Shown here one piece after another: positions 2,472-62,183 of a stretch of 64,000 bases of DNA. Below the pieces are notes generated by a model, which saw only the letters and a program-made list of their open reading frames with translations, did no database searches and was not told the origin of the DNA. The stretch covers positions 766 through 64,765 of the forward strand of contig DAOSLF010000010.1 of NCBI GenBank assembly GCA_035368605.1, given 5' to 3'. The DNA comes from Candidatus Omnitrophota bacterium (GTDB lineage: Bacteria > Omnitrophota > Omnitrophia > Omnitrophales > Aquincolibacteriaceae). Both the position numbers and the translations under genes were made by a program. Each line of letters starts with the position of its first letter. Position 1 is the stretch's first letter.

Positions 2472-2755
2472 AATCAAATCCGCGGACGCTCACCGATAAA
2501 CGCAAAACAAGTGTCCCTGTTTCTGGCCGGCGGAACTCCGCTCTCTTCGAGGAACAGAAAGGTTGGAGGTCATGTGTCAGTCCCGCAGAAAAGAAAGGCT
2601 GAAACGCGGGTCGTGCGGTTTTTGCAGACGGATTTTTTATTTCCCTGCCAGAAGGATAGTGTTACACTATCGCTCTTCTATCATAAAAAGAACGGGGGCA
2701 CTCGTTTTTTGCCCATAGCAGGAGCGGCCCCGTATTCCCCAGGGAGGGTTTGGTA

Positions 2756-3505: not shown

Positions 3506-3700
3506 TCGCCACGCGTGCCGCGCCGCACGAAGAAGATCCTTCTCTCGCGGCATGTGCTGTGCGGCTTTTTGTCCGGTTTGAACAGAAAGGAAAAATAACG
3601 CGTCTCGGGTTCATGGCGACCCGCCGGCCCTTCATCTTCGGCGTGAGTTTTCCGCTTTCCGGCATCGCCGTCGCTTGAGCCTGTTCGCCGAAGAACCGTC

Positions 3701-17065: not shown

Positions 17066-17725
17066 TCATTCCATCATCAAACCCTTGAGAATGGCTGTTT
17101 CCCTTTGAGCATCCCGATGCTTCTCCACAAAGTTTTGATATTCCGCAGATGTAAAATCAAAAACACCTTGAAACGCACAAAGCCCTGGCTCCTGGGACGA
17201 CCGGGACAAATACTCCTGATAGGAAGAGTGCTCCCATTCGCCCGGCTTGTTGACCAGACCGGCGCTCGCAGGATTCAAATGGATATAGCGTGACAAATGC
17301 AAGGCTTGTTCATTTGTTTTGACGCGAACATTTTTGAAGCGCCCCTCCCAAAGGGGTCCTTTCCGCTTATGCCTCAGATTAAAATACCGCGCATAACCAT
17401 TGAGGAGCCTTCCCATGAAAACAGATATACCGTTCGTTGCGGATTGCCTGAGAAACAAATGAATATGGGTCGGCATAAGGCAATAGGCGATAATATGAAC
17501 CAGTCGTTCTTTCTCCCGCCGCTCGGTCATCCGCGGGGTCATGTCCTTTCCAAGCCGTTTGAGCCACGAAAATTTCATGGCAGGATCCGAAACCTGGTGA
17601 AACTCCAGAAGCGATTTCATTCGGTCGAATTCGTCTTTATGGTTAAAAATGACGAATCCCGCGATACTTTTCGTATAAACATGGTAATACTCCCCCGTCG
17701 CCAACGGATCCTTGCGAACCTGCAT
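17066..17725 (-). mobile_element. REP-associated tyrosine transposase (RAYT, IS200/IS605 TnpA-like HUH enzyme)
   Basis: GEYYHVYTK N-terminal motif, HUH motif PTHIHLFL, catalytic Tyr motif YIHLNP. Flanked by inverted REP copies. Confidence 0.8.
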
Positions 17726-45781: not shown

Positions 45782-48700
45782 TTACGCGCTTCTCGCCGTC
45801 GCGAGGTACTCGGCCTGCATCTGTTCGACCATCTGACTCACGCCGAGACCGGCCAGGTTGAGGAAGTTCCGGAACATCTTCTGGTCGATCGTGACAACAT
45901 TGTCCTTCAACTGCTCGGCCAGAAGCGCCGCCTGCGGATTGTTCGCTCCCGCGAAAATCATGGCCTTCAGATTCAGGGAAGTGCCGCGGGCCCCGGTTTC
46001 CCGATCGGCGTCCAGGAGTTTTCTCGTCGCTTCATCCAGATCAGCGGCCGGCAGGATGGGAGGCCGGTTGGCCTGGCGGAGCCGGGCGTTGATCTTTTCA
46101 AGGAAACCAAGGTCCGCAGGATCTTCCGTCAGGACAACCGTGCGGATATTGCCAAACACATTGCGGATCACATAAACAAGACCGCGCTTGAAAGCGGTTT
46201 CGGGGTCAAGCACAAGCGCGTCGTTCGCCTGGAGCGTTTTGACCCCAAGCGACCGCCGAAGCATCCGGACGGTGAATTCGCTCTGGAATTTCTCCGGCCA
46301 GCTCGCCACCGTGACGGGCGCGGTCACCCTGGCGACCGGGGCCAGATTTTCAAGGATGATGTTTTTGATTTCATAGGAATACGCGAGAAGCGGTACGATC
46401 CCGTCCATGATCTTTTCCGTCACGGCGCGCATCGCGCGTTCGGACGCACCACTCAGGCGTTCATGATCCAGGAGAAACTCCTTATAGGTCAACACCGGGC
46501 CGGAGGCCGTGACAAGACCTCTCAATTCGCCCGCGATCTTCTGAGGCCGTGTTTCTGTCGAACGCGTTTCCGCGCGGGGGGCAGCAGAGCCGTCCAAAGG
46601 CGCCTCAGCCGCGGATTCGTTTTCCGTTTTAACGGACGGGATGACGGTAATGCCGGTCCCTTCGCGCTCGAGCTTCCAGAGACCGAGCTTCACACCCAGG
46701 GCAAGCGCGATCTCTTCCTGCGGCCGCAGCGGTCTTTCGGTGTTGTGCCCGAAAAGGTCCTTCAGGGAAATGACCGGCGGCATTCCTTGAACCGTTTTGG
46801 CCGGCGGCGGCACCAGGGCCTCCAGGATCGTCCGGATCCCGTCCTGGTTTTCTTTAATAAACCTTCCGCTAACACGGACAACGCGTTTCGTTCCGCGGAC
46901 CGTTATCCCGATCTCCGTATCTCTCGGATATTCCCTGCCGCCACGCTTGATCACGAGAGAATCCGCATAGAGCTTTTCAAAGGTCGCCGTTTCCCCGGCC
47001 GCTTCGTCTTTTTTAGCCCACTCCACGGCAGCGGCGTATTCGCCGATCGTCACGATCAGAAATGCCCGGTCGTCCTTCGAAAGCGTGAACTGTGTTTCAA
47101 AACGGTCAACAATCGCCGCAATCTCATCCTGTACCACCTCAGGGATCGCCCGTTTATTCATCGCGCCGTAGCGGCGGATAAGTTCGACATCCGGTTTCTG
47201 TTCGAGGGCAGTCACGAGGGCGGCCCGGCTCTTTTCGGCGGAGGACGGTCCTTTCGCCTTTTTCACGGAAGTCCTGGCCTCGGCGCGGACCGTCACCGGG
47301 GGTTTCAGACTTTCAAGAAAGCGGCTCGCGCGAAACAGCCCTTCAAAACCTTTGCGGCCACCCGAAACCAGTTCATGCCCGAGGAACAATTTTGCGGTCT
47401 TGCGAACGCCTTCGTCAGGATGGGAGGCGGCCACTTCCTCAAGCTCCTTGCGAACCCGGGCTTCGTCAGCCGCCGCGTTACGCAGTTCGGCCCGGGCGTG
47501 GTATTTCAGAACGCCGGCAAAAAATACGGCAAAGGACGCTGCCGGAGCCGCCGTCACCATACCCTTTGCCGCGGCCTGCGCTACTGCACGCAACTCGCTC
47601 CGCTCGCTCCACGCAGCGGGCCTTTCGCCGCTCGCTACCGGCGCGTCAGGGCGGTTTATGCCGACGGGGATCATCTGGAGCACCTGGAAACGCCATCCCG
47701 ACTGCTGAACTCCGGCAGGGTCCTTGCGCTTCACAACAGGCACGCCCACGCGCCAGCCTTCCCTGGAAAGAGAGGCTAACGTGTGTTCCCGCTCATAGAC
47801 CGTGTTCGCGGTCCAGTCACGTACTTTATAGACGGTCCCGGGAAGCAATCCCAACCGGTTGATGCTGCCCAAACCAAACCAGACCTTTCCTTCCTCTTTA
47901 TTGTAAGGCGTCTTGGCGAAATGGATCGGAATGACCACATGCCGCTTCTGTTCCGTCCCGTCCACCCTCTCGGTCACGGTGCGGGTAATGACAACGGCGG
48001 AGTCACGACTCGCATCATTGAGAAAGATGTCTCCTTTTTCAAAAAGATCTTTCATCTCCGGATCGGCCATGATCGCCTTCAGAGAGTGATACACTTCAGG
48101 ATCCCAGTCGCGCATATCTTCAAGGAATTCCGGTATCAGCCCCGCGATAAAAGCCATCACAGGACGCACGCCCTCGCTCCCGAAGCCCAGTTCCGAAACC
48201 ATTTTCCCGCGGGACAACGTAGAGATCGCCTTGAGACGCCGCTTCAGGTTTTCCGGGTCATGCCTCAAAAGATAGATCACTGTTTTTTTGAGCCAATAAC
48301 CCCGGGAGCGCTGCTGCCGGACCTGATCTTTGGGGTCCCCGGACACAAGCGCCCGGAGATCGTCGATAATGAACATTTCCTGGGATTGCTTTTGGGGACC
48401 TTCCAGTGCCATCTCCCCGGTTGGACGCAATCTCAGGATCTGAATGTCCGGTTCCGGAACGCCGATCGGAAGCGCCCCGCGGGACAGCGCCCAGAATGGA
48501 TAGGGTTTCCTGTCTTCGCCGTCACCGTAGATCTCGCCGGTGATGACGTTCGACACCTCATAGGCCATTTTCGATTCGGGGTCCGTTTGTCCGGTCAACC
48601 ACTCAAAAACCTTTTCCCCGTAGAATTGCCCCCAGGCTTTCGGCTCGCCGCCTTCCACCCCGGGATATTTCGGCTCCCCAAGGTTCAGCGCCACAATGTA

Positions 48701-51700
48701 TTTTTCCCCGTTTTCCTCGACCGCAAATCCCGCGAGGCTCTGGTTCAAAGACCCGAATTTCCGTCCCCTGGATTCCAGGTAGAAGTAAAGGTTCTGCCGG
48801 AACAGCGCGTTCCGGAAAAGTTCTTTGTAGCCTTCTCCCCGGGAGATCAAATACCCTTGCAGGATTTTCTCGGAAAGCCGGGCCACGAACAGATCCAGCA
48901 AACGAAGCGCGGCCAGATTCCCGCGCACTTTCTCCAGGGTGTTCGCCGAAGATTCAGCCTGTGCTTTCAGTGCGACCATCTCCTGATAGAGCATCGGCAA
49001 GGATTCCCTGAACGGTTCCAGATAAAAGAAGATCTTGCCAAAGATATCCCCCCGCGCCGCGTGATAAGCCACGGAACGATACCCTTCCGCGGCGTGAGTC
49101 CTCAGAAGGCGGGAACTTTCGATAAAATCCAAAACCCTGGGACCCGCAAGTTCCAGAGGCTCCGGCTTTTCCGTCCGCCAAATAAATCCGGCACGCTCAT
49201 CTTTTTCGCCTTGAGATAAAAACCTCAAAGCCTGTTCCGGAGAAAGCTGCGATTGCGCAAAGATCATCTGTTGTCTTTCTTTCTTTTGGATCACCTTTTG
49301 CCACAACTTCATATGGGCCCGGGCCTGGCTCTTTTCCATATCCACCAAGGGAGAGGAACGGAGCGCTTCCCATTCAAGGTTCATGCGTTCCGCGGGAACC
49401 TGATAACGCCCCTGAAGGTTTACGAGAGCTTCGATCATGGAGTGGGCCATCGGATAGCGTGCGTTGATTTCCACGATATTGCCGTCGGCATCCAGCGTGT
49501 TCAGGACAAATTTACGATCGCCTGTTTCGCTGTACTCCACGAGGTAACCGTTCGTAATCTTCCAATCCTTGCTATGGAGGTTTTTGACGAGCTGCTCGTA
49601 GGTCACATGTTCTTTGAAGATATCGACTTCCCGTCCGGTGGCCGTCTCAACGATCGTAAAAAGTTCGGGGCCCGCACCGCCCCAGGCCATAATCAGAACC
49701 GCTCCGTTCGGAAGCCCCTTCATCATGCTGGTCGCGGAAGCTTCCAGAACCTCGTAGGTGATCATTACGGTCGCGGAGTCTCCCTGGAAAAGGATCGGGG
49801 CGACTTCGATGTTGTAGTTTTCGATGGTCGCAAATTTGTCCTCGAGACCCAGCTCTTTGACAAGACCCTGAATCTCGAGGAATACGTCGTGTGCGTCCTG
49901 GCCGAATTCACGCCCCCCAAGGATCGCCCGGGCGGCGTGCTTTTTGTACCAGGCGAGTTTCGCGGGATCCGCCTTCAGGGAATACAGAATCTCCCGCCAT
50001 TTGTCCGGCCCCTTGTAGGAAACCTGCCGGCGCACGTTGGAAACAATCGCGGTCTTCAGAAATTCCCTTCTCAAGACCCGGATTTTTGTATCACCTGAAA
50101 TATCCTTCCACGCGTTCTCATTCACGAGCGCCACCTGGATCGCCCGGTAAAGGTCCCCGAGAACAGCGGCATCATCCACGGACTCCATCCCCAGCTCGCG
50201 GCGATAAGCTTCCATGGCTTTGTCGTACCAGGCGGGACGATTCTGACTTTGTTTCAGCCAAAGCATCAGCCGGCCTGTGAGATAAGCCTTGATCACATCG
50301 AATCGCTCCTGAAATTCTCCCAGAACCGCTTTACGGGCGGGATCGTTCAGTTTGGCGAAGAAATCCCGGTCGTCGACTTCATCCATTCCGAGTTTCCGTT
50401 TGTACGAATCGACAAGAGACCTGAAAAGCGGCGATTGCCATTGCTCAAAAAGGACCCCGTTCGTGCTACGAAGCCCGTCCCCGTTGTAGCTGTCAACAAT
50501 ATCCACATATCCGGGGGCCACTCCGCCGGCAACCGCCGGCGTATGTTCGTACAGGGCCACTCCGGTAATCATGTCGAAGATCATCCCGATCGCTTTCACC
50601 ACGTTAATCTTCCCCTTCTGAACGATGTAACGCCACAGGGAAACGGCATAACCCAAAAGCCTGGCTGAAACGGCCGCGGGCCCGTAAATCGTCGGTTCGA
50701 ACACCGAATGATTCATGTGATGATGGATCGCGTCGGGCAGAAGAGGCGTCGGAATACTGACAAAAACCTCATTGTCCACGAAGAGAATCTTCTTTTTGGC
50801 GAGACCCTTTTCCTGCAGCTTGAGGGTTAGAAGCTCCGTAATCCTTCCATAGACCGCCATTTGAAGATCGCGCCAGAGATTCGGGCCGCCATAGGGAGCG
50901 TCCGGATACACTTCGTCAAAAATCTGTACTTTCGCACCGTATTCATCGATGTAAAAGGCCTCCACGTAAAAGTTCGGCATCCCCCCGACTGATGTTTCCG
51001 TGGGGTAAACCTTGATCCGGATCTCGCGATCGGAAGCTTCCCGCGCCTGCTGAAGCCTTTTCCGGTAAAGCGTCCAATCCTTTTTTTGAGCTTCCAGTCC
51101 CGCGCGCGCGTTCGCGTCCCCCGATCCGGAGATCCGGCCGTCTATATCCGCGATGATCCCTTCCGCGCGTGAAATCCATTCTTCCGCGCCGGAGCGATAT
51201 TCACTTCCGGGTTCCATGAAAGTCTCCAGACGAAGACCGGGGTCTTCGCTGAGAACATCCCGCAAATAATCTCCCAGAGTCCTTTTGCCCTCTTTAACTT
51301 CTTCCGGAACGTCCTTGGCAAAACGCTGTCCCTTAATCTCATCATAGATCACGTTCACGGTAAACGCGTCATAGGCTTTCGCCTTGGGCCTCCCGAAGTT
51401 TTTTTGCCAGGAAGGGAAAAGATCGTGCATCAAGGCGCCAAGACCGCCGGTCACTGTCGTTGCAGCCACAAGACCCGCGATCGTTTCCCCAAACTTTTGA
51501 ATAAGCCTGTCGAGAATATCTCTTGAAAGCCCCGCTTCAAGCTGACGCGATACAACCGTATACTTCCCCAGTTCCGCGGGCTTTTTCGCCCAAGCGCGTG
51601 ATTCGGAGCGGGCAAAAACCCCGGGAGCAGATTCCGGCGCTTTTTTCCACATACGCGTCATTATCCGCACAGGACGCTCTTCCCGGACTTCGCTCCGGAC

Positions 51701-54700
51701 AAATTCGTCCCCGAGACCCGTCAGTCGATCCGCAAGCGCCCTGATATTCTCTTTCTCCTTCATCATGGCCCAAGCGCCCAGGATGGTCCGGATAAGCGTC
51801 AGGGCCGCGGCCTGCGAATCTTCATAGCCTTCTTTCAGGAGCGCCGTATAACCGGTAAAAATATCATTTGTCAGGAATTGTTCCCGTCCCTGGGCGTAGA
51901 AAGCGGCCGTCAGCAGCGCCGCGATCCGTTCGCTGACGCGTTTGTTCAGGAAGCGACCAAAAATCCCGCGGTGCCCGTGTTCAAAAGCGCGGATCCGGGT
52001 CTTTAAAAGGTGGATCGTCGCGAGCGCCGATTCGACCGGCGAGTAATTCTCTCTCTGGAATTGACGGAAATACCGGAGCGTATACTGCTGCCGGAGAGCG
52101 ATCGACGCGCCATCCGCGAAAACGAACGCAAGGGCGAGCATGGCCGAAACTTCGGAGGAGATATTCTTCGCGGCAAATTGTTCATAGACATTCCGGATCC
52201 GGTTTTCTGCGGCACGCGGGTCGCGATCGCGTTCGAGAACAAGCGCCGCCGCCAAAACAGCCTCGATGAGCAACTGGTCGTTCCTCCCGGTCTTGACGGC
52301 ATCCAGTTTTTCGGACCACGGCGCCATCTGTTCGTTCAGCCACGCGGAGGACTGATAGAGAGGGCTTTCTGCAGGTTCCGACTTCATCCACGTTTTGATT
52401 AGCCCGGAAACCGTCAACGCGGCAAATCCGTCCCCTTCCAGGGACTTTCGCGCCATCGCAAGGACGTCGCCCGCGCGGTTCTCGGTCTCAAGCATCGACC
52501 GTATCCTCAGAACATCAGGCGTTTCACGGACCTCGCTGCGCGCATCCTGTCCGGTGGCTCTGAACCATCGGCTCAGCCTATCCATATCCCGATCCCGCAT
52601 CGTCTGACCTTTCCGGTCCTTACGCGGGCGATAGGTTTGATCGAGCACCGTGAACAACATCCCTTCCGGCGACTCGATCTCGATCGTTATTTTTGAACCC
52701 CCCACATCCTTTAAAAAAATCCGGACAGGCTCCTCACCCTTCCCGCGCGTCACCGTCAAAGGCGTTCCGGCATAAAGATCAAAACCATCGCCCTCCCTTG
52801 AGATCATTTTCCCGTCGACGGAAATATTCGTATTTTGCGACTGCAAAAGAACATAGGCGCCGCCCTCGCAGGGCGAATCCATCACCAACCGGAATTCTCC
52901 GGCGCCAAAAACCAAGGTCTCGTCCAGTCCCAGCTCCTGTTCTGCTTTTCGGGTTTCGGATCGCATTGAGAACCTGAACCCTTGCCGGGTGAGAAAATCG
53001 CTCAGCGCCTGCGCATGCCGAGCGGACAACAGGTAAGCCGCCTCACCGCGTCCGTTCACGATCACAGCCTTTGGTGTTTCGATCACGCCGGAAACGAGCC
53101 GATCGCGGATCAGGTCCTCAATCAGGGGATTTTCAGGATGGGAAGATAGCAGAATAATCGGCGTTTGAACCTTTCCGGTGGCAGTTGAAAGAGCTTTCCT
53201 CGTCCAGGTCTTCCACTCTTCACGTTTGCTGGCCACATCGAAATTGACCAACGCGAGATCGAACGGGCCCTTATCCAGATTTTTCCATAATTCTTCACGG
53301 TTATAGCTGTCGATCCGGGCGGAAACAACCTTGGCTTGGGGGGCAAGTTCTTTCACCAGTTGCCTAAAACCGCTGATCCCCGGCTCACCATCTGCCACCA
53401 AAACATTCTTTAAAGCCGGAAAAGTCTTCCCGGGAATTTCGGTGGATAAAACCGCAGCCACTTCCGGACGCGCCTCGAAATGAACCCGGTGTTCTCTCAT
53501 CCGGACGTCCCACCGCCTGTTCTCCTTATCAAGGCGAACCGAGACCCCGAGATTCCGGTCACCGGCCTCAAGAATCCTCACGATTTCCTCCATGAGCGGG
53601 ATATATTTCAAATCTTCTGCCGTGAAATAAACAACCTGCCCCTCAACCCGATCCCGAATATCTCCCAGAATCAGCAATTCCAAAACGCGTTTGATGGTCG
53701 AAGCATCCGTTGCTTCTGCCAGGGCGCGGGTCCAGGCCTGGTAGCGTTCCCGGTAATGTTTTTCCCGGATCTCGCGAGGCGCCAAATAGCTCGTCCCGAG
53801 AATATGTCGAAGCGCCAAAAGGACCTGGCTGTCTTGCGCTTCCGCGGGGTCCAGTCTGCCGATCGCTTCACGATAAAGGATGTGCCCGGGAAGTCGCTGG
53901 TAGCGATACCGAAGCGGGAGTATCACGAGGCGATGGATCATTGCGGACACGCTCACGAAGAAGATCATGGCGGAAGCGAGGATCAGACAATCCCTCAATT
54001 CAGACCGCCGAACCGCAGAAACCGTTTCCTCCTGTTTTGAAATCTCCAGCCATTCCAGATCTTCGATCCCCCGGACCCCGGACTGGCGTGAAAGGCTGTC
54101 CACCATCCACAATCCCTGTCTCGCGGGATTATCGTCGATCATGATCGTATAGGCGATCCGGGCTTTCGGCTTGAAAGTCACGAATGTCCCCAGAAGGGCT
54201 TCGCGCGTGACCCCCTGCTTTTCAAGAAATGCAGCGATCGAGCCTTGAGCCTCGCCGAAATTCTTCCGGGAAAAAGACCACAAAACCTCTCCCGAAGGCA
54301 ACCCCGGACTTATTTCCAAAGAGGGCCGGGTATCGAACGCGGGAAGCGCGGCGTTCGGAATCTTCGTGACCTTGGGTTCGGATTTGCGGACCGGGACCGT
54401 TCTTTTTGAAACAAAAAAACCACTGATCGCAAGACCAGCCGCGACCACAAGGGCTGTTGTCAGAAAAGCACCGGCAACAAGACCCACTGCGGCAAACGTC
54501 AACGCAAGGGATGCTTTTTCCCTGACGGACCGGAGAACGGACCGCCGGCCGGCAAAGTCACGCCCTTCCGATCGCGCGCCCATCTGCTGATTCAGAACGT
54601 CTTCGAGCATACCGGCATCGTTCCAGCGGATCCTGGCCCCGTCGAACAGGATGTTCCTCGCGTCATGCGGATCGGCCGTGACCGTGACGCCGGCAGGAAG

Positions 54701-57700
54701 CAACGTCGCGAGCTTCTCGAAGAGATCGTCCCGGTTCGCGACGACCGTGCCTTTACCGTCGATCACGAGAACAAGCTTGTGGCCGGAGATCGTCTGCACC
54801 ATCACCCGCCGGATCCCGGAACGGACGTTTTCCGTCACAAGCTTCCCGGATGAAAATCCGCTTTTGAGGAATTCGCCGAGAGACACGCCGGGTTCTTTCG
54901 AAAGATTTTCATCCTTCATCCCAACCCGAAATTCGGAACGCAGGTTGGAGTTTGCGGCATCCCGAGCCCCGAAACGGGAATCGAACGGATCACGGGACAT
55001 AAGCGGCAGGCTTCCGGCATAAACGTCTCCCGCACCGAAATCCACGGTCAAAAGATCCCCTTCACGCAACGCTCTTCCCCCGAACATCACGCTTCCGTCC
55101 CGGAGGACGTTAAGACCCTGCACGCTGACTACGGTGGGGATTTTGTCGTAGTTAGCTACCACCGCGGCATGCGAGGTCAACCCCCCTTGGGAAGTTAAAA
55201 GTATGAGCCTTTTTCCGAAGGCCCTGAGTATGCGATTGGCATTGATAAGGTCCGGAGAATCTTCGGGCGTCGGGAAAGCACTGACAAGGATCACGGCTTC
55301 CACCTTTTCCTGCCGGGCCATGCGTTCCACCAAATCTCCCCGAAGCACTTCGGAGGGTTTCAGCGCAACAATCCCCCGCAAGGCCCCCTCGTTCCCGTAG
55401 GCGACGTTGCCGTGTCCTTCCGGAGTCCGGGAAATTTTTTCATGGTCCAAAAGCGGAAAGTTTTCCGTGTTCCCGACCCTTTGATCATAGACCGTCTGGA
55501 GGAACCACGGCTTTCTGCTTTCAACGGTGAACTCCACCATTTGGGGAACACCAAAATATGCGGCCAAAAGACTGGTGCCGGCTTTTAAACTCTCATAAAC
55601 GCGGGAATCCATGGTCTCGATCGGCCGTGTCGGGACACGCCCCTGCATGTGGTTCATGCCCTGTGAAAAAGGAACCCATTCCCCGCCAAAAACCGGATCA
55701 CCCGAATAAGGGTCGTGGGATGTGGCAATCCCCGCGCCGGAATGTTCATCCCGATCCCCAAAAACATAGGCTTGCACGATCACGGGCGTTGCCCATGCGT
55801 CTGAAATGTTTTTTTCTTTCCGGTAGCGGCTTGCCTTGGAATTTCCCCAGGATTCAAAAATTTTCTCGATCAGAAAATAAAGCTGTTTGTGTACATCCTG
55901 ATGCAGGGCCTCAAACTCCTCTTTCACGCCATAATGGTCCATGATCCCATACGCTTCCCGCACCATTTCAGAAAGATCCGACTCCCGGAGATCTTCCCAT
56001 TTCAGGACTTTGCCATCGCCAAGGAATCGGTTCGCCAAAGCCTCGAATTCGTCATGCGGAACGCCCAAACTCGTAGCCATTGATTCCACAAAACCGAGAA
56101 AGGCCCTGTAACCGGATTTAGCGCCTCTCGTTTCCAGGACATACTCCAGAATCTCCGGAGTGAATCCCACCGCCACGGCCGTTTCAAAAATCCCCGGCAT
56201 GATAAAGACAGCCCCGGAACGGACCGCGAGAAAAAGAGGCTCGCCATCTTCCCTGAGCAGAGGGGTCGGGGCCATGCCATAGCGGACAGGGTGCCCCTTC
56301 TTTCCAGACCATTCTTCTTCGAGTCTTCGGAGATGTTTTTTGATGGCTGTCTGGAACTGCTCCGGAAATTGCTTGTAAAAACGATACCGCCCGACATAGG
56401 AGGGGATCACAAAAGCGCTCGGAACCGGAAGTCCCAGGGAATTCATCCTCATCAGGTAGGTCCCTTTGCCGCCATAGGTTTTTCTTTCGTGTTGCCGGTA
56501 GTCGTAATGAGAATCCCGGTAATCATCAATGTGGGCGATCTCCCCGAACGGATCCTGTTCTTTTTGCCTGATAAAATTCCGGTGCGCCTCGGGGTTAACC
56601 GGTTTATCGGGATTCTGGTTCACCTGGACCTGCGTTCTGCTTTTGAGTTGTTCGAGAAGATCGATGGCAGCCACCGAGGCGAATTTTTCCTTGCGGATCA
56701 GGGCAATGGCACGTTCGTGCCTTTCATGGTCTTCGCCGTAAAGGAATTTTCCGGCCAGATGATATTGGGAAATCCACCGGGAGAATTCCCTCTGGATCCC
56801 TTTTTGCATGACATTGATCACATCCAGAAGTTGGCTATAACTCAGCTCCGAATCATTCAACAAATCGGACCACTGAGCCGCGTACCTTGTGATGAATCCG
56901 CTGTCAAACAGCTCGTCGGTCAGTTCCGCCATCAGCGTCAGCGCATCCTGAAAATCGGCGTCAGCCTCCCCCCATTCTTTCAGAAAGGTTCCGAGCGACA
57001 AACTCAACATTTGCCCCAAGGAACGGTCGATCACATAGAGCTTGTGCATAAGCAGGGGGTTATTCACGCTTTCCAGGATTTCTGTGACTGTCCGCCGCGC
57101 GGCAATGATTTTCCTTGTCCTTTCAAAAGAGGATTGATCATAAGCCTCCACAACAAGCTGTAGCGCTTTCTCCAGAGAGGGAAGCTCCTTGACGGTTTGG
57201 GTCTGAAGCCAGCGTTCAAAAAGGTCAGGCCTGGAAGTCCCTTCAAAAAGTGCGACCAGGGCCTGCTCCAATTGTCTGATTTGAGAATAAATTTCGTTCT
57301 TGTTCCGTCCGCCGTCGGTCATGGCAACCAGCTCGTCCCGAAGCTCCCGGTCCCGTTCCTCCAGAAAGAGCCGTTCGCGCTGGAGCCCGCCAGTGTCGCC
57401 CGTGTTCAGAAATTCCAGATAGGCCTGAACTTTGGAGAGTACCCCGTAAGAGAAAGAAGCCCCGTGAAGAGTCTGGCGGATTTCCGCCGCAAACTTGGTA
57501 CGCAATAATCGCTCGTCGAGATCCTCCGCAATTCCCCACAGAACGCTCCTGAGATCGAAGAAGGTATCGGCCGCCCCGTAGGGTAATGAGAGTACAAGCT
57601 CTTTAACAGGCCGTCTCAGGGATTTCGGGGTTTTAGCAAAAATCTGCGCGGCAAGGTTCCCGGACTGATCAACAAGATCGTCAGGATACTGTTCATAATC

Positions 57701-59710
57701 ACGCGAGTGGTTGAGGCGGAGCGTTTTTTTCTTTTCTCTCAAAAGAAGACTCAGCTGAAAGATCATATCCAGGTGGGCGCTCAGATCCTCCTGTTTCAGA
57801 ATCCACCGGATCACCGCAAACGCATCGCCCCAGGTTCTGATCTCCCGAAAATCCGGCGTATCTCCCCTCGCCTCGGAGCGTCGATGGGAAGAATCGGCAT
57901 CATCGGGACCGCTCCTTGTTTTCGAGTCCTGGAGAAATGCCGCGGGCGGCGATGCCTTGAGCCGGTCGACCCGATCGCCAACGGCATTCACGGCGGTTGT
58001 CACTTCTTTTGATCCGGAGCGAAAAGAAGCCGCGGCGGCGATAAAATTGCGGCGGACGGCGGCGACACCTTCCGGGGAAACCTGCCGGACGATCCCGGCA
58101 ACACGCTCGCCGGCCGCGGCAAAATCACGGTGCCAGGTCCGGGGAGACGTTTCCTGCCAAAACCGTATTTCGCTTCGGACTACGGGAGCCATGTGGGACT
58201 TCCCTGTCAATTCCTGTCCGAGCAGTGCGGCAAGATAGTTCTTCCGGGAATCTGCCGGAACCTCACCGATATGGGGCGTGATCCCGATGTAGGCATTGCC
58301 CGAACGCGTGATTCTCTCTTTAAGTCCGTCGGTGTGAAAACCGCCGGTAATAAGCACGGCCCTGGTCCGCTTGCGTTCTTTCATTCGCGCGAGAGACTTT
58401 TCCATCATGAAATCCTCGCGGCGAATCGCGCCGGCGTAGAATTCCAGCGCTGTTTGATAGAGGGTTTGCAAGGCGGGCGATACATCTGCCGCCAAATGTT
58501 CCGGAACGATTTTCCTCGAAACCACCTGCTGGTATTCTTCCCGGGAAAGCTCCAGATGAAAAAGTTTTTTGAGCAACAGATATTCCCGCAGCAACGCCAC
58601 GTGCCCGCGTTCGCTTTCGGTCCCGGTGGTCGCGACAACGATTTGCTTCGAAAGTTCCCGGATCTCTTGCTGCAGCGCCTCACCCTGAAGCTCGGACATG
58701 AGGACCAACTGCTGGATATGAAGGCGAAAGTTCGGATAAACGGCAAAAGAAAAATCGTTCGGCAAAGCGTCCATCATGCGTTCAAAGACAAACCGGGTTT
58801 CATAGACCGGAAGGGATCCGGTCTTCGCTGAGGCGAAAACCCGCTCCACCTCGCCCGCCACGGAGGATGAAAGGCCGGTTTCCGCAAAGAATTTCTTTTT
58901 CTCGATTTCGCTTTTGGCGAGGTCGATCCCGGCGCCCGCCTTTTTCAAACGGAAATAGCGGACCAGGGTCGGCCAGGCGACCTGTGCCGACGCGTCCAGA
59001 AGATCCAGATCCAGCGAGGAGAACGCCTTCTTCTTCAACGTTTCCAGCCAATCGGTGAGCGGACTTTGCCCTGTCTCGTAGGAAACATAACGGCTGAGGA
59101 ATTCCCGAAGGCCCTTATTCAAAACCGATGCGGCCTGGCCCTGCCACCGGAGATAAGCCTTGTCGAGAAAAGCGTTCCCGATCTCACGGCCTTTAAAAAC
59201 GGCCTTGAAAGCTTCGCGGTCCGCACGATACGCCGCAGCGTCTTCAACCCCCCAACCTTCTGCCCCTCGGGGCGCATCCATCAAAAAGACCTCCGCGCCG
59301 GTAAGTTCGCCGGCCTCCATCAACTTGCGATTTGCCTCGTGCTGCAATTTGGCGTCGGCGGGAAAAAAACGGAACAGCTTCGGTTCGAGCTTGTATCCGG
59401 CCCCTTCCATGAGAACCAGGTCAACGCCATAGTCCCTGGAAAGATACTGCAAAATACCCCGGATATTCTTTTGGGCGTCATAATTGGCGTGAGCTTCCTG
59501 AATATGGATCAGGACCGGTGATTGCGGAGCGGCCGGAATGATCTCATGCACTCGACCGAATGCGTCGGGGATTTTGAACGAGGAAACAAAAGAAGGCGCT
59601 TCCACACCCCGGGCATGGGCGAGCGGGGAAGGAGTCAGAGTGTTGGTCGCGAAGAAAGTGACAACAACGAAACCTGCCAGAAGTCTGTTAAGCTTCTTCA
59701 GAGAATACAT
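45782..59710 (-). CDS. giant 4642-aa multidomain protein. Order: N-terminal TM, shared ~450-aa His-motif domain, PEP-synthase/PPDK-type ATP-grasp + swivel-His dikinase module, internal TM block, REC-like + PilZ-like pair, GT35-like alpha-glucan phosphorylase region, ~1100-aa C-terminal region of unknown function.
   Basis: Single uninterrupted ORF with non-repetitive sequence. Domain motifs are listed in the findings. Confidence 0.8.
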   Translation of the reverse strand: MYSLKKLNRLLAGFVVVTFFATNTLTPSPLAHARGVEAPSFVSSFKIPDAFGRVHEIIPAAPQSPVLIHIQEAHANYDAQKNIRGILQYLSRDYGVDLVLMEGAGYKLEPKLFRFFPADAKLQHEANRKLMEAGELTGAEVFLMDAPRGAEGWGVEDAAAYRADREAFKAVFKGREIGNAFLDKAYLRWQGQAASVLNKGLREFLSRYVSYETGQSPLTDWLETLKKKAFSSLDLDLLDASAQVAWPTLVRYFRLKKAGAGIDLAKSEIEKKKFFAETGLSSSVAGEVERVFASAKTGSLPVYETRFVFERMMDALPNDFSFAVYPNFRLHIQQLVLMSELQGEALQQEIRELSKQIVVATTGTESERGHVALLREYLLLKKLFHLELSREEYQQVVSRKIVPEHLAADVSPALQTLYQTALEFYAGAIRREDFMMEKSLARMKERKRTRAVLITGGFHTDGLKERITRSGNAYIGITPHIGEVPADSRKNYLAALLGQELTGKSHMAPVVRSEIRFWQETSPRTWHRDFAAAGERVAGIVRQVSPEGVAAVRRNFIAAAASFRSGSKEVTTAVNAVGDRVDRLKASPPAAFLQDSKTRSGPDDADSSHRRSEARGDTPDFREIRTWGDAFAVIRWILKQEDLSAHLDMIFQLSLLLREKKKTLRLNHSRDYEQYPDDLVDQSGNLAAQIFAKTPKSLRRPVKELVLSLPYGAADTFFDLRSVLWGIAEDLDERLLRTKFAAEIRQTLHGASFSYGVLSKVQAYLEFLNTGDTGGLQRERLFLEERDRELRDELVAMTDGGRNKNEIYSQIRQLEQALVALFEGTSRPDLFERWLQTQTVKELPSLEKALQLVVEAYDQSSFERTRKIIAARRTVTEILESVNNPLLMHKLYVIDRSLGQMLSLSLGTFLKEWGEADADFQDALTLMAELTDELFDSGFITRYAAQWSDLLNDSELSYSQLLDVINVMQKGIQREFSRWISQYHLAGKFLYGEDHERHERAIALIRKEKFASVAAIDLLEQLKSRTQVQVNQNPDKPVNPEAHRNFIRQKEQDPFGEIAHIDDYRDSHYDYRQHERKTYGGKGTYLMRMNSLGLPVPSAFVIPSYVGRYRFYKQFPEQFQTAIKKHLRRLEEEWSGKKGHPVRYGMAPTPLLREDGEPLFLAVRSGAVFIMPGIFETAVAVGFTPEILEYVLETRGAKSGYRAFLGFVESMATSLGVPHDEFEALANRFLGDGKVLKWEDLRESDLSEMVREAYGIMDHYGVKEEFEALHQDVHKQLYFLIEKIFESWGNSKASRYRKEKNISDAWATPVIVQAYVFGDRDEHSGAGIATSHDPYSGDPVFGGEWVPFSQGMNHMQGRVPTRPIETMDSRVYESLKAGTSLLAAYFGVPQMVEFTVESRKPWFLQTVYDQRVGNTENFPLLDHEKISRTPEGHGNVAYGNEGALRGIVALKPSEVLRGDLVERMARQEKVEAVILVSAFPTPEDSPDLINANRILRAFGKRLILLTSQGGLTSHAAVVANYDKIPTVVSVQGLNVLRDGSVMFGGRALREGDLLTVDFGAGDVYAGSLPLMSRDPFDSRFGARDAANSNLRSEFRVGMKDENLSKEPGVSLGEFLKSGFSSGKLVTENVRSGIRRVMVQTISGHKLVLVIDGKGTVVANRDDLFEKLATLLPAGVTVTADPHDARNILFDGARIRWNDAGMLEDVLNQQMGARSEGRDFAGRRSVLRSVREKASLALTFAAVGLVAGAFLTTALVVAAGLAISGFFVSKRTVPVRKSEPKVTKIPNAALPAFDTRPSLEISPGLPSGEVLWSFSRKNFGEAQGSIAAFLEKQGVTREALLGTFVTFKPKARIAYTIMIDDNPARQGLWMVDSLSRQSGVRGIEDLEWLEISKQEETVSAVRRSELRDCLILASAMIFFVSVSAMIHRLVILPLRYRYQRLPGHILYREAIGRLDPAEAQDSQVLLALRHILGTSYLAPREIREKHYRERYQAWTRALAEATDASTIKRVLELLILGDIRDRVEGQVVYFTAEDLKYIPLMEEIVRILEAGDRNLGVSVRLDKENRRWDVRMREHRVHFEARPEVAAVLSTEIPGKTFPALKNVLVADGEPGISGFRQLVKELAPQAKVVSARIDSYNREELWKNLDKGPFDLALVNFDVASKREEWKTWTRKALSTATGKVQTPIILLSSHPENPLIEDLIRDRLVSGVIETPKAVIVNGRGEAAYLLSARHAQALSDFLTRQGFRFSMRSETRKAEQELGLDETLVFGAGEFRLVMDSPCEGGAYVLLQSQNTNISVDGKMISREGDGFDLYAGTPLTVTRGKGEEPVRIFLKDVGGSKITIEIESPEGMLFTVLDQTYRPRKDRKGQTMRDRDMDRLSRWFRATGQDARSEVRETPDVLRIRSMLETENRAGDVLAMARKSLEGDGFAALTVSGLIKTWMKSEPAESPLYQSSAWLNEQMAPWSEKLDAVKTGRNDQLLIEAVLAAALVLERDRDPRAAENRIRNVYEQFAAKNISSEVSAMLALAFVFADGASIALRQQYTLRYFRQFQRENYSPVESALATIHLLKTRIRAFEHGHRGIFGRFLNKRVSERIAALLTAAFYAQGREQFLTNDIFTGYTALLKEGYEDSQAAALTLIRTILGAWAMMKEKENIRALADRLTGLGDEFVRSEVREERPVRIMTRMWKKAPESAPGVFARSESRAWAKKPAELGKYTVVSRQLEAGLSRDILDRLIQKFGETIAGLVAATTVTGGLGALMHDLFPSWQKNFGRPKAKAYDAFTVNVIYDEIKGQRFAKDVPEEVKEGKRTLGDYLRDVLSEDPGLRLETFMEPGSEYRSGAEEWISRAEGIIADIDGRISGSGDANARAGLEAQKKDWTLYRKRLQQAREASDREIRIKVYPTETSVGGMPNFYVEAFYIDEYGAKVQIFDEVYPDAPYGGPNLWRDLQMAVYGRITELLTLKLQEKGLAKKKILFVDNEVFVSIPTPLLPDAIHHHMNHSVFEPTIYGPAAVSARLLGYAVSLWRYIVQKGKINVVKAIGMIFDMITGVALYEHTPAVAGGVAPGYVDIVDSYNGDGLRSTNGVLFEQWQSPLFRSLVDSYKRKLGMDEVDDRDFFAKLNDPARKAVLGEFQERFDVIKAYLTGRLMLWLKQSQNRPAWYDKAMEAYRRELGMESVDDAAVLGDLYRAIQVALVNENAWKDISGDTKIRVLRREFLKTAIVSNVRRQVSYKGPDKWREILYSLKADPAKLAWYKKHAARAILGGREFGQDAHDVFLEIQGLVKELGLEDKFATIENYNIEVAPILFQGDSATVMITYEVLEASATSMMKGLPNGAVLIMAWGGAGPELFTIVETATGREVDIFKEHVTYEQLVKNLHSKDWKITNGYLVEYSETGDRKFVLNTLDADGNIVEINARYPMAHSMIEALVNLQGRYQVPAERMNLEWEALRSSPLVDMEKSQARAHMKLWQKVIQKKERQQMIFAQSQLSPEQALRFLSQGEKDERAGFIWRTEKPEPLELAGPRVLDFIESSRLLRTHAAEGYRSVAYHAARGDIFGKIFFYLEPFRESLPMLYQEMVALKAQAESSANTLEKVRGNLAALRLLDLFVARLSEKILQGYLISRGEGYKELFRNALFRQNLYFYLESRGRKFGSLNQSLAGFAVEENGEKYIVALNLGEPKYPGVEGGEPKAWGQFYGEKVFEWLTGQTDPESKMAYEVSNVITGEIYGDGEDRKPYPFWALSRGALPIGVPEPDIQILRLRPTGEMALEGPQKQSQEMFIIDDLRALVSGDPKDQVRQQRSRGYWLKKTVIYLLRHDPENLKRRLKAISTLSRGKMVSELGFGSEGVRPVMAFIAGLIPEFLEDMRDWDPEVYHSLKAIMADPEMKDLFEKGDIFLNDASRDSAVVITRTVTERVDGTEQKRHVVIPIHFAKTPYNKEEGKVWFGLGSINRLGLLPGTVYKVRDWTANTVYEREHTLASLSREGWRVGVPVVKRKDPAGVQQSGWRFQVLQMIPVGINRPDAPVASGERPAAWSERSELRAVAQAAAKGMVTAAPAASFAVFFAGVLKYHARAELRNAAADEARVRKELEEVAASHPDEGVRKTAKLFLGHELVSGGRKGFEGLFRASRFLESLKPPVTVRAEARTSVKKAKGPSSAEKSRAALVTALEQKPDVELIRRYGAMNKRAIPEVVQDEIAAIVDRFETQFTLSKDDRAFLIVTIGEYAAAVEWAKKDEAAGETATFEKLYADSLVIKRGGREYPRDTEIGITVRGTKRVVRVSGRFIKENQDGIRTILEALVPPPAKTVQGMPPVISLKDLFGHNTERPLRPQEEIALALGVKLGLWKLEREGTGITVIPSVKTENESAAEAPLDGSAAPRAETRSTETRPQKIAGELRGLVTASGPVLTYKEFLLDHERLSGASERAMRAVTEKIMDGIVPLLAYSYEIKNIILENLAPVARVTAPVTVASWPEKFQSEFTVRMLRRSLGVKTLQANDALVLDPETAFKRGLVYVIRNVFGNIRTVVLTEDPADLGFLEKINARLRQANRPPILPAADLDEATRKLLDADRETGARGTSLNLKAMIFAGANNPQAALLAEQLKDNVVTIDQKMFRNFLNLAGLGVSQMVEQMQAEYLATARSA
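49200..51615 (-). other. GT35-like alpha-glucan phosphorylase region inside the 4642-aa protein
   Basis: Four GT35-type motifs in order: TGGLGALMHD (vs SGGLGVLAGDH), HHHMNHSVFE (vs HLNEGHAAF), EHTPAVAGG (vs THTPVPAGH), STNGVLFEQW (vs TNGVHxxTW). Confidence 0.5.
52675..53413 (-). other. REC-like (pseudo-receiver?) domain followed by PilZ-like c-di-GMP-binding domain inside the 4642-aa protein
   Basis: VLVADGEP ... FDLALVNFDV ... PIILLSSH (receiver-like). Then MRSETRK (RxxxR) and, 24 aa later, MDSPCEGGAYVLL (PilZ DxSxxG-like box). Confidence 0.4.
55000..56490 (-). other. PEP synthase/PPDK/rifampin-phosphotransferase-type dikinase module (ATP-grasp nucleotide-binding domain + phosphohistidine swivel domain) inside the 4642-aa protein
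   Basis: YGGKGTYLMRMNSLGLPVPSAFVI, LAVRSGAVFIMPGIFETAV, GIATSHDPYSGDPVFGGEWVPFSQGMNHMQGRVP, then LILLTSQGGLTSHAAVVANYDKIPTVV (TSH catalytic His). Confidence 0.75.
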
Positions 59711-59990: not shown

Positions 59991-62183
59991 ATGAAACGGT
60001 ATCTCCCGATTCTCGTCGCTTGTTTGATCCTGTCAGGCGGCTCGATCAACAGCTTCTCTCAGCAAACCACGGCATCGCAAGCCGGTACGATCAGCGTTGA
60101 TTGCCTTTCGGTTCCTGAAGAAATCGGAAAGATCAAAGAACGCTTCAAAGGCAACACCGGACGGACGGTCATCCAGATCCAGGATGTCCATGCCCACACC
60201 GTTGCCCAGGAGAACATCGCGGCAATCCTTGAGCGTCTTCGCGCGGTGTTCAATGTTGATCGGGTTGCGCTGGAAGGCGCCTGGTCAACCACCGCGCTCT
60301 CCGCAAGTCAGGCTATCCCCTCCTCGCGCGACAAGCAGCTCCTGGCGCGGTCACTCCTTGAAGAGGATCTCATTTCGGGGCCTGTTTACGCCGCCGTCCT
60401 TTCTCCCGGGCCGATCACGCTGGCCGGGATCGAGGAAGAGGCCGCGTATGAAAAGAACCGGCAAATCTATCTCGACCATCAGGGCGCGATCCCTCTTATT
60501 AAAGAAAAGATCGCGGCGTACTTCGACCGGCTGAAGCACTCGCAAAAGACACTCTGGAACCCCGGCCTGTTCACTTTCGGAAATTCCCTGGCGGCCTTTC
60601 GGGAGCGCGGGGACGTCGCGACCTATCTCGCCTCCGCCATCAAGACCGCGGACGCCCATGCGACGGACCTCTCAGACCTGGCGCAGATCTCCCTGATCCG
60701 GGAGATCATCACCCTCGAAAATCAGGTCGATCGCAGTCGACTCAAAACGGAGATCGATCAGCTGATCCGGAAATACAAGAACACGCCTTACACGCTTGAA
60801 GAATTGATCCGCGGCGGGATGATTCCGGAAGAAACGACCGGTCTCTATCCCGAGGTCAAAAAGATACGGCATCTGACCGAACTCCGGGACAGGATTTCGA
60901 TCAGCGAATTCCAGCGGGAACTCGAGATCATGACCCGGCGGATCATGGAAACTCTTGCCGTGAACGACGATGAGTCGGCGCTTTGGGACAGGACCGGGAG
61001 GTTCTACCTGGGACAAAGCGTTCTGTCGCTTCAGGCAACGCCGGACATTCTCGATGCGTTCGAAAAAGAGCTCCCGGCAGCCAAAGAGGAATTCGCGGCC
61101 GCCGGGCTCGCGAAAGAACTGGATCGGGCCCTTGATTTCTATGCCACCGTTAAAGAAAGGGATTCGTTTTTCGCGAAAAAGATTCTCGAAGGTCCGCGCT
61201 TTCAGGGAACGGTCGCCGTCGTCACCGGAGGTTTTCACACGGATGGTCTTTCCCGCAAGCTGCGGGAGGCCGGCGTTTCCTTCATCACGATCGCGCCGGA
61301 ACTGGGGGACGGCAAAGTGAACGAGGAACTTTATGAAAAAAGAATGGCGGAAGACCTTCGGCAAGGTCCCGCTTTAAACAAGGTTCAGGATCAGGCACGA
61401 AGCAACGCGGACAGTCAGACCCTTTCCGAACTCCGGAACAGGCTTGAAATCGTCGATGAGCGGTTCCCGGTCAGTCTCGGTGTCCTTTCGGCCACCAAAA
61501 ACATCCTGAGCGCGGTCGCCGTCTATCAAGGCGAGTCGCCCGCCGCCCTGCAAAGCTCCGCCGCGGCACCCAACACCCCGGCAAGACCCCATCGTCAAGC
61601 CGCAGGGGTACCCGTCACACCACCGCTCTCTTTTTCGATCGAGCCGTTTATGAGAGCGGCGCGCGAGTCCCAATTGGCCGAGGTCCGCGCGTGGATGGAA
61701 CAGGTCGGGAAGGCGGATGCGCGGGCAATGCTGGTGGCGGAAGCGGACGCGATGAAAAGGCTTCTTGAGGATAAGGCGGGCGCCCGGGCTCTCAAACGGC
61801 TCCTGGACGAGGGCGATATTCTCGCTCTCGCGCAAAACATCCCCTCCCGGGACCTTCCCGAAGACCTTCTTTTCGCGCATGGCATCGAACGTTTTGAGAT
61901 CAAAAACGAGGACCCTTCCCTTGCGGATATCGAAGTCCTGCTTCAGGGAACACCGCGCTTCAAACGATTCGCCAGGAAATATCCGTTCGTGATCATGAAA
62001 AACGGTTATGAGAACCCGACATTCGTTGTGTTGCCGGAGTCCCCCGTCTCGCTGGTTCTGTACCGGCTGATCGCCCTGAACGCGGAACTCTGCAGGGCGG
62101 CGAAGAACGCTGAATTCCTGAAACTTCTGGAAGGTCTGACGGCGGAAATCCTGTCCCGGCAGGCTGCGGGGCAAGCGGCCTGA
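59991..62183 (+). CDS. 730-aa secreted/membrane-anchored paralog carrying only the shared N-terminal His-motif domain plus a 250-aa C-terminal extension
   Basis: Signal/TM segment. IQIQDVHAHTVAQENI near the N-terminus and VAVVTGGFHTDGLSRKLREAGVSFITIAP at aa 409-437. Both motifs are conserved in the two giant proteins. Confidence 0.7.
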   Translation: MKRYLPILVACLILSGGSINSFSQQTTASQAGTISVDCLSVPEEIGKIKERFKGNTGRTVIQIQDVHAHTVAQENIAAILERLRAVFNVDRVALEGAWSTTALSASQAIPSSRDKQLLARSLLEEDLISGPVYAAVLSPGPITLAGIEEEAAYEKNRQIYLDHQGAIPLIKEKIAAYFDRLKHSQKTLWNPGLFTFGNSLAAFRERGDVATYLASAIKTADAHATDLSDLAQISLIREIITLENQVDRSRLKTEIDQLIRKYKNTPYTLEELIRGGMIPEETTGLYPEVKKIRHLTELRDRISISEFQRELEIMTRRIMETLAVNDDESALWDRTGRFYLGQSVLSLQATPDILDAFEKELPAAKEEFAAAGLAKELDRALDFYATVKERDSFFAKKILEGPRFQGTVAVVTGGFHTDGLSRKLREAGVSFITIAPELGDGKVNEELYEKRMAEDLRQGPALNKVQDQARSNADSQTLSELRNRLEIVDERFPVSLGVLSATKNILSAVAVYQGESPAALQSSAAAPNTPARPHRQAAGVPVTPPLSFSIEPFMRAARESQLAEVRAWMEQVGKADARAMLVAEADAMKRLLEDKAGARALKRLLDEGDILALAQNIPSRDLPEDLLFAHGIERFEIKNEDPSLADIEVLLQGTPRFKRFARKYPFVIMKNGYENPTFVVLPESPVSLVLYRLIALNAELCRAAKNAEFLKLLEGLTAEILSRQAAGQAA

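Follow-up and report, generated by a model that had tools for sequence, protein, structure and literature searches.

A very divergent GT35-like phosphorylase domain and an apparently exchangeable dikinase module in one giant protein of a Candidatus Omnitrophota bacterium

Can two enzyme modules that share one very long polypeptide be taken as functional partners? The question is raised by a 64,000-nucleotide stretch of a Candidatus Omnitrophota metagenome-assembled genome (GenBank assembly GCA_035368605.1, contig DAOSLF010000010.1, positions 766 to 64,765), hereafter called the window. A giant open reading frame (ORF) of this stretch encodes a dikinase module and, further downstream, motifs of the GT35 glycogen and maltodextrin phosphorylases. 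An initial annotation saw here an echo of the plant glucan-water dikinase (GWD), with phosphate transfer to an alpha-glucan-like polymer or its phosphorolysis, and allowed for the phosphorylase-like part being inactive. The present analysis favours a different answer, namely a divergent, catalytically competent GT35 alpha-1,4-glucan phosphorylase forming a self-contained cassette of a modular giant protein, in which the dikinase is separate cargo and not a partner. This reading, built on sequence comparison and structure models, is given a probability of roughly 0.7. The coordinates of all features are collected in Table 1.

The giant protein is recorded at NCBI as HOE68986.1, [quoted passage not shown]. 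The full-length protein of 4,642 aa was found in five independent copies (NCBI, ENA, JGI and Logan), and the ORF is therefore regarded as real. A frameshift-broken version of the gene occurs in one ENA assembly (pieces P0001, P0013, P0015 and P0123).

Residues ~2710-3499 are, by profile and model evidence, a genuine but very divergent GT35 domain. In a single-sequence search of the PDB, 13 of the 14 matches were phosphorylases, all over the region where ENYN...EASATSMMK...NGA of the window protein faces ENYN...EASGTGNMK...NGA. A k-mer-indexed homolog search, profile query included, returned 3 relatives only. An exhaustive HMMER scan of 1.84 billion cluster representatives returned 89, of which 41 reached E <= 1e-30, and nearly all lie within proteins of 2,000-7,500 aa. 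The profile of a 17-sequence family alignment (A2; 29-48% identity to the window domain) gave 48 PDB matches at E <= 0.01, every one of them a GT35 phosphorylase (best E 1e-9). The weak tail of the HMMER list consists of proteins above the PF00343 threshold, such as P0082, P0109 and P0107, and the family members P0002, P0003, P0047 and P0058 also exceed this cutoff (30-34 bits). An hhalign comparison of the family profile with the intermediates P0118, P0109, P0081 and P0092, among which P0109 and P0081 pass the PF00343 cutoff, gave E 1.6e-62 over 638 columns.

The AlphaFold2 (AF2) model calculated from A2 (pLDDT 85.6, pTM 0.86) has the GT-B fold of the phosphorylase type, with two Rossmann-like domains in ~800 aa. 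In a Foldseek search of the PDB with this model, the top 50 matches were all glycogen or maltodextrin phosphorylases aligned over the full length (E 5.6e-15, probability 1.0, ~920 columns, TM ~0.5), at 12-14% identity to the canonical enzymes. The N-terminal half of the domain alone found no sequence match in the PDB; its homology is supported by the structure model, the motifs and the intermediates together. Since model, Foldseek and profile evidence converge on GT35, the reservation of the initial annotation, that the fold might not be GT-B and the motif matches might be coincidental, can be set aside. A glycogen-synthase (GT5) assignment, considered on account of weak Glyco_transf_5 matches over the GGLG region in relatives, was ruled out by the C-terminal motifs and by the PDB and fold matches, all of which are GT35.

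The four motifs that the initial annotation named for 49200-51615 lie in the order it gave, in one minus-strand frame of a single ORF, and are invariant or nearly so in the 17-sequence alignment, far beyond chance. GGLG is taken to be the canonical Gly134-Gly137 loop, N3000/H3001 presumably equal Asn376/His377 of the T-N-H-T motif, and N3084 and W3091 are assumed to be Asn484 and Trp491, the latter packing against pyridoxal 5'-phosphate (PLP). The most diagnostic motifs, VRRQVSYK, GGR, ENY (aa 3297-3299) and EASATSMMK, had not been listed. By motif spacing and in rabbit numbering, R3228, Y3232 and K3233 presumably represent the phosphate-site Arg569, Tyr573 and Lys574, while Y3299, E3323 and T3327 are taken as Tyr648, Glu672 and Thr676. 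The PLP lysine, which had been proposed as a check, is present: K3331 is invariant in the 17 family sequences, aligns with the lysine of EASGT(G/S)NMK in PDB chains and corresponds to the Schiff-base Lys680. The positions invariant in A2 are TGGLGALMxD, N3000/H3001, E3055/H3056, R3081/T3083/N3084/G3085, W3091, R3227/R3228, Y3232/K3233, the GGR of aa 3265-3267 (G3265, G3266, R3267), E3323/A3324, T3327 and K3331 (E3323, T3327 and K3331 are alignment positions E624, T628 and K632). Y3299 is nearly invariant (at least 90%). In these alignments, every cofactor- and phosphate-binding residue checked is conserved. As the shell around cofactor, phosphate and glucose is kept at 29-48% identity, an active PLP enzyme can be argued for rather than a dead scaffold.

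One of the four motifs has to be reinterpreted. HTP..AGG is indeed present at aa 3056, but it probably does not represent the canonical T-H-T-P-V-P-A-G signature. E3055/H3056 (in LYEHT) align with the canonical GVAxxH459 position. The intermediates read HHYNHTVVPAG at the N3000/H3001 motif, and the canonical signature probably corresponds to this second motif, HHxNHTVxxPG (in intermediates HHYNHTVVPAGMP).

The spacing between motifs had been read as anomalous, with about 230 aa between GGLG and HxN as compared with about 100 aa in canonical enzymes. The distance here is ~241-245 aa, and it was the canonical figure that was wrong: the Pfam-positive intermediates have 175-200 aa, and Gly134 to His377 of rabbit muscle phosphorylase spans ~242 aa. 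The spacing is thus canonical and the "extra 130 aa" do not exist; with the catalytic residues conserved, the explanation by insertion or inactivity is not supported. Within motifs, the spacings are the same as in the rabbit enzyme (R-to-K 5, Y-to-K 32, E-to-K 8, N-to-W 7, RR-to-GG 38), and from GGLG to the PLP lysine there are 576 aa in the window protein versus ~545 aa in rabbit phosphorylase.

The domain therefore shares with the GT35 phosphorylases (GlgP, MalP, rabbit muscle GP, plant PHS; PF00343, TIGR02093) the two-domain GT-B fold and, at canonical spacing, the GGLG loop, N-H-T, TNG...W, RRxxxYK, GG(K/R), ENY and E-A-S-x-T-x-x-M-K. Apart from its low identity and scores below the Pfam and NCBIfam cutoffs, it differs from them in a short N-terminus without the regulatory region and in ~50 additional helical residues that separate TNG from the PLP lysine. 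It also has a ~42-aa helical hairpin, a lineage-specific insertion relative to P0002 and P0003. Unlike the known enzymes, the family always carries a ~500-aa accessory domain and resides in proteins of 2,000-7,500 aa with signal-peptide-like N-termini. The shorter bacterial and archaeal branch, the "alpha-glucan family phosphorylases" of TIGR02094 (PDB 9l6i, 20yr), resembles the window domain in having Ser at the Gly677 position, and its chains are among the profile matches. It is distinguished by the canonical NEGH and THTPVPAG, which in the window domain are replaced by NEVF and NHSVFEPT.

The likely substrate is indicated by the company of the domain. In relatives it is fused to GDE_C/amylo-alpha-1,6-glucosidase (E 1.7e-103), GH77 4-alpha-glucanotransferase/amylomaltase (E 2e-34) and GH13 alpha-amylase (E 1.6e-24). 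Debranching enzyme, GH77 and GH13 classically work together with phosphorylase in the breakdown of glycogen and maltodextrin, and these fusions make alpha-1,4-glucan phosphorolysis the likely activity. The accessory or "post" domain had no sequence match in the PDB. Its AF2 model (pLDDT 82.5) consists of two units, each with a helical bundle and a beta-sandwich; weak local Foldseek matches were all to GH13 alpha-glucan enzymes (TreS, GlgE, TVAI; best E 3e-3, ~140 columns). Catalytic and accessory domains together would form the cassette of aa ~2702-4036. Judging from the conserved residues, PLP would be bound to K3331 as a Schiff base, and its 5'-phosphate, with R3228 and K3233, would position orthophosphate. 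The latter would then attack the alpha-1,4 bond at the non-reducing end of glycogen or maltodextrin, releasing glucose-1-phosphate.

The dikinase module does lie upstream in the same ORF, as the initial annotation had it, with matches to PF01326, PF00391 and TIGR01828. The distance was underestimated: the phosphorylase motifs lie not 1.2-2.4 kb but ~3.6-4.5 kb further on, which corresponds to ~1,190-1,520 codons after the end of the His domain (aa 1567). The module has the ATP-grasp domain and the catalytic T-S-H phospho-histidine of pyruvate phosphate dikinase (PPDK). At 193.5 bits, TIGR01828 stays below its cutoff of 843, and the match spans only model positions 12-340 and the His domain. 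All of the top 120 homologs are PPDKs or PPDK-like fragments, nearly all of them bona fide PPDKs, 28-31% identical over 93-95% of the module, and the domain order is that of PPDK. In contrast to the full-length PPDK homologs, the giant protein lacks the C-terminal phosphoenolpyruvate (PEP)/pyruvate TIM-barrel PF02896 in a Pfam scan, and for this reason the window dikinase cannot be a PPDK as such. With GWD and phosphoglucan-water dikinase (PWD) it has in common PPDK-related ATP-binding and phospho-His domains without a PEP/pyruvate domain, as well as an association with alpha-glucan metabolism. In GWD, however, His992 precedes a C-terminal ATP domain (1069-1387) and CBM45 modules are added (PMC13553574). 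The window module has the reverse order, ATP then His, and an ATP domain of PPDK type; a Pfam search of all 4,642 aa, extended on sub-segments to E values as high as 10, gave no CBM45 or CBM20 match.

The association of the dikinase with the glucan enzyme is also not conserved. Among the 89 other family representatives, none (0/89) had a PPDK or phospho-His module by phmmer, Pfam and regular-expression searches. Taken singly, phmmer with both window dikinases found no match in the relatives and Pfam found no PPDK_N in 17 giants; the GGxTSHAA phospho-His motif is unique to the window protein among 91 sequences (189 kaa in total). A local hidden Markov model made from PPDK N-termini detects the window dikinase and misses the PPDK_N of the second giant ORF of the window, described below; it is not a general PPDK_N detector. 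The closest relative of the window protein is its syntenic ortholog P0035, of 5,675 aa (contig CAZDVO010000012.1, here L059, 3001-20028). Both genes are flanked by VitK2_biosynth, a 199-aa hypothetical protein and M24 on one side and by a 730/740-aa hypothetical protein on the other. Identity is 84% in the N-terminal head, 86% over the whole GT35 cassette and 93% in the GT35-like region. P0035 has no counterpart of window aa 574-1629; the slot holds a segment with a Peptidase_S8 subtilase (E 3.5e-14). A UDP-glucose dehydrogenase module is added further downstream. The comparison indicates that cassettes are swapped between orthologous giant genes. Since the fusion is not conserved and the same slot of P0035 holds the Peptidase_S8 segment, the dikinase is best described as a separate, interchangeable cargo cassette and not a functional partner of the phosphorylase. 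The frequency of PPDK-type domains in Omnitrophota giants was already noted by West-Roberts et al.

Several observations weigh against the reading as an active phosphorylase cassette with unrelated cargo. The window domain stays below the PF00343 cutoff (19.6 bits vs 27; E 3e-4) and below that of TIGR02094, its best NCBIfam match (19.4 vs 191.7; E 3.7e-4, model positions 424-504). In the canonical EASGTGNMK, G675 and G677 are replaced by Ala and Ser. Nearly all family members begin in a signal-peptide-like manner, with a basic stretch, a hydrophobic stretch and an AxA pattern, which is unexpected for an enzyme dependent on PLP and inorganic phosphate and acting on cytoplasmic glycogen. As for the cargo, the Pfam screen for PPDK_N was full for 17 giants, and the two window dikinases as phmmer queries, together with the phospho-His regular expression, covered the others.

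A coupling of the GWD kind would have the dikinase phosphorylate an alpha-glucan, or a glucan bound by the GT35-like region, so that both modules work on one polymer. The two do share an ORF, the dikinase retains its TSH histidine while lacking the PEP/pyruvate acceptor domain, which leaves room for another acceptor, and the second giant ORF likewise pairs a PPDK_N with a sugar-active Bac_transf domain. Nevertheless, such coupling is very improbable, and the echo of GWD suggested initially is not supported: the nearest relatives of the dikinase are PPDKs and not GWD or PWD, its domain order is opposite to that of GWD, no starch-binding CBM45 or CBM20 module was detected, ~1,190 residues with hydrophobic segments and seven RSExR junctions separate the modules, and neither the 89 other family representatives nor the syntenic ortholog, whose slot is taken by a subtilase, has the fusion. 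Alternatively, the domain could act on another sugar-1-phosphate or in the synthetic direction, using glucose-1-phosphate to build or remodel a glucan or other glycan, for instance one for attachment or for the cell surface, instead of degrading glycogen. In its favour are the reversibility of the GT35 reaction, the fusion of some relatives to modules of the UDP-glucose dehydrogenase, epimerase or TreT-like glycosyltransferase kind, and the many starch-synthase and GT1 domains in the published catalogues of Omnitrophota giants. This alternative is nonetheless considered quite unlikely, given that the recurrent partners GDE_C, GH77 and GH13 are catabolic and that, to our knowledge, GT35 in CAZy comprises only alpha-1,4-glucan phosphorylases.

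The extreme divergence (12-14% identity), the sub-threshold family scores and the scaffold-like context of a giant protein would all suit a catalytically dead glucan-binding scaffold, whose fold is kept to hold a polymer for neighbouring modules. The tested residues contacting cofactor, phosphate and glucose are, however, invariant or nearly invariant at 29-48% identity, which would not be expected without catalytic constraint, and the scaffold is accordingly held to be improbable. Coincidental motifs or an ORF created by misassembly could be invoked only by reference to the frameshifted gene pieces of one ENA assembly; the intact copies, the agreement of profile, fold and motifs on GT35 and the presence of the family in 56 species-level genomes effectively refute it. 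The divergent, active GT35 phosphorylase is thus retained as the preferred reading.

By genome scan, these 56 genomes belong mostly to Omnitrophota, with some Elusimicrobia, a few labelled Planctomycetia and one Eisenbacteria; the clade comprises ~41 clusters at 50% identity. One family member of 940 aa consists of a signal peptide and the GT35-like domain only. In the short members P0058, P0003 and P0047, from other genomes, a signal-peptide-like N-terminus is followed almost directly by the GT35-like domain. The pairing in these short members points to possible export of the clade, an unusual property in a glycogen phosphorylase. Should the giant have a true signal peptide, its ATP-dependent dikinase and its phosphorylase would both lie outside the cytoplasm, which is puzzling; the same tension of location has been discussed for other Omnitrophota giants (bioRxiv 10.1101/2023.11.21.568195, 10.64898/2026.06.07.730766).

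The borders of the cassettes are marked by a short peptide motif. R[SA]ExR occurs 13 times in the giant protein (aa 512, 611, 1591, 1713, 1902, 2250, 2391, 2672, 2701, 4037, 4073, 4142 and 4379), against 0.38 copies expected from composition, and 121 times in 37 homologous giants against 7.1 expected; the second giant ORF has 4 copies. Copies flank both the dikinase cassette (aa 611, 1591) and the cassette of GT35 and post domains (aa 2701, 4037). In 19 of the 20 motif-bearing homologs a copy is found no more than 16 aa from where the cassette is projected to start (~9% by chance for each homolog), and in 12 of 16 homologs one is found within 25 aa of the end of the post domain. The collinear blocks between the window protein and P0035 start at RSExR motifs. 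A DNA-level repeat or recombination site was considered and ruled out, as the codons differ between copies; for the same reason the motif is regarded as a peptide-level signal. It is a strong candidate for an inter-cassette junction or proteolytic processing site.

The N-terminal head of ~570 aa, which follows the signal-peptide-like start and has the motifs IQEAH, LMEGA and GGFHT, defines a modular family of giant proteins (homologs P0035-P0071). It is common to the second giant ORF and to most giants with the GT35-like domain. The head had no PDB, NCBIfam or significant Pfam match, and only a faint one to the ChaN/Tiki superfamily (PF04187, E 0.41). Besides the hydrophobic segments listed in Table 1, the hydropathy scan found a further one at aa ~4050-4068. 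At aa ~2085-2200 (window 53400-53700 approximately, minus strand) the sequence VLVADGEPGISGFRQLV...FDLALVNFDV resembles by eye an alpha/beta module of the CheY/receiver type, which Pfam did not detect.

The second giant ORF (17877-28682, minus strand, TTG start) encodes 3,601 aa. Its N-terminal head (~500 aa) is 31% identical to that of the first (E 2e-55), and it contains a PPDK_N domain at aa 2330-2614 and a Bac_transf sugar-phosphate transferase at aa 2867-3034. The two PPDK_N modules of the window showed no detectable mutual similarity by blastp. Directly downstream of this gene lies an ORF for an IS200-like Y1 transposase (17066-17725, minus strand; PF01797, E 4e-9). The divergent neighbour of the first giant gene, a 730-aa ORF at 59991-62183 on the plus strand, had no Pfam match and is kept beside the giant gene in relatives (a 12-member cluster, with a 740-aa counterpart in L059).

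Table 1. Features of the giant gene in window coordinates, with protein positions and the basis of each assignment
Feature	Protein position (aa)	Window position	Strand	Basis or remark
Giant ORF	4,642 aa	45782..59710	-	Single uninterrupted frame; Candidatus Omnitrophota metagenome-assembled genome
N-terminal signal-peptide-like sequence and ~570-aa head domain		57992..59710	-	Family comparison
Dikinase cassette	RSEAR (611) to RSEFR (1591)	54926..57880	-	Junction motifs and ortholog comparison
PPDK-type nucleotide-binding (ATP-grasp) domain	1073-1413	55472..56494	-	PF01326 (PPDK_N) aa 1079-1338, E 5e-12; TIGR01828 E 4.9e-57, positions 12-340
Phospho-histidine swivel domain	1504-1567	55010..55201	-	PF00391 aa 1504-1558, E 1.4e-7; GGLTSHAAV, catalytic His1514
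Hydrophobic, transmembrane-like segments	1732-1766 and 1905-1930	53921..54517	-	Hydropathy scan; between dikinase and GT35 cassette
RSESR, candidate start of GT35 cassette	2701-2705	51596..51610	-	In low-pLDDT linker of the GT35 model
GT35-like (glycogen/maltodextrin phosphorylase-type) catalytic domain	~2710-3499	49214..51583	-	Family profile, AF2 model, Foldseek
GGLG	2755-2758	51437..51448	-	Inside invariant TGGLGALMxD
HHHMNHSV	2996-3003	50702..50725 (HHHMNH 50708-50725)	-	N3000/H3001 invariant (A2 positions N301/H302)
EHTPAVAGG	3055-3063 (HTPAVAGG from 3056)	50522..50548 (HTPAVAGG 50522-50545)	-	E3055/H3056 invariant
STNGVLFEQW	3082-3091 (TNGV...W 3083-3091)	50438..50467 (TNGV...W 50438-50464)	-	Aligned to TNGITFRRW of PDB phosphorylases; family-invariant
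RRQVSYK	3227-3233 (VRRQVSYK from 3226)	50012..50032	-	Invariant; aligned to VRRxVxYKR of Pfam-positive phosphorylases
ENYNI...EASATSMMK	3297-3331	49718..49822	-	Residue-by-residue alignment to PDB GT35 chains
Post domain	3520-4036	47603..49153	-	Co-occurrence: always after the GT35-like domain in the family
RSELR, candidate end of GT35 and post cassette	4037-4041	47588..47602	-	In low-pLDDT tail of the post-domain model

The giant proteins of Omnitrophota ("Archaeovorins" and related) have been described as very long, membrane-associated and provided with a signal peptide and tiled sugar-metabolism domains, all of which recalls the window protein; at 4.6 kaa, however, it is far shorter than the at least 30 kaa described there (bioRxiv 10.1101/2023.11.21.568195, 10.64898/2026.06.07.730766). 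These surveys report starch-synthase (GT5), GT1, phosphoglucomutase, ROK and PPDK_N domains and propose post-translational cleavage, at points stated as unknown (10.1101/2023.11.21.568195). GT35 or phosphorylase is not mentioned in the text of 10.1101/2023.11.21.568195, and both mentions in that of 10.64898/2026.06.07.730766 concern methylthioadenosine phosphorylase. A wider proposal, unlikely as a whole, is that the window protein is a secreted or membrane-inserted polyprotein with cassettes delimited, and possibly released, at RSExR; the cassette of GT35 and accessory domains would then phosphorolyse foreign glycogen to glucose-1-phosphate in the periplasm or in or on a prey or host cell. 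If true, this would be the first extracytoplasmic or effector-type glycogen phosphorylase, and with RSExR the giants of Omnitrophota would have a first concrete candidate for a cleavage or junction code.

For the GT35 family, very well studied as it is, the finding adds a previously unannotated and deeply divergent clade. For the modular giants, the exchange of cassettes between orthologs means that co-residence of domains should not be read as functional coupling. RSExR offers a testable answer to where the giants might be cut, and a working rule by which they can be divided into foldable units before structure prediction. Finally, the GT35 domain would supply the missing step from glycogen to glucose-1-phosphate, which would feed the phosphoglucomutase, ROK-kinase and starch-synthase modules of Omnitrophota giants.

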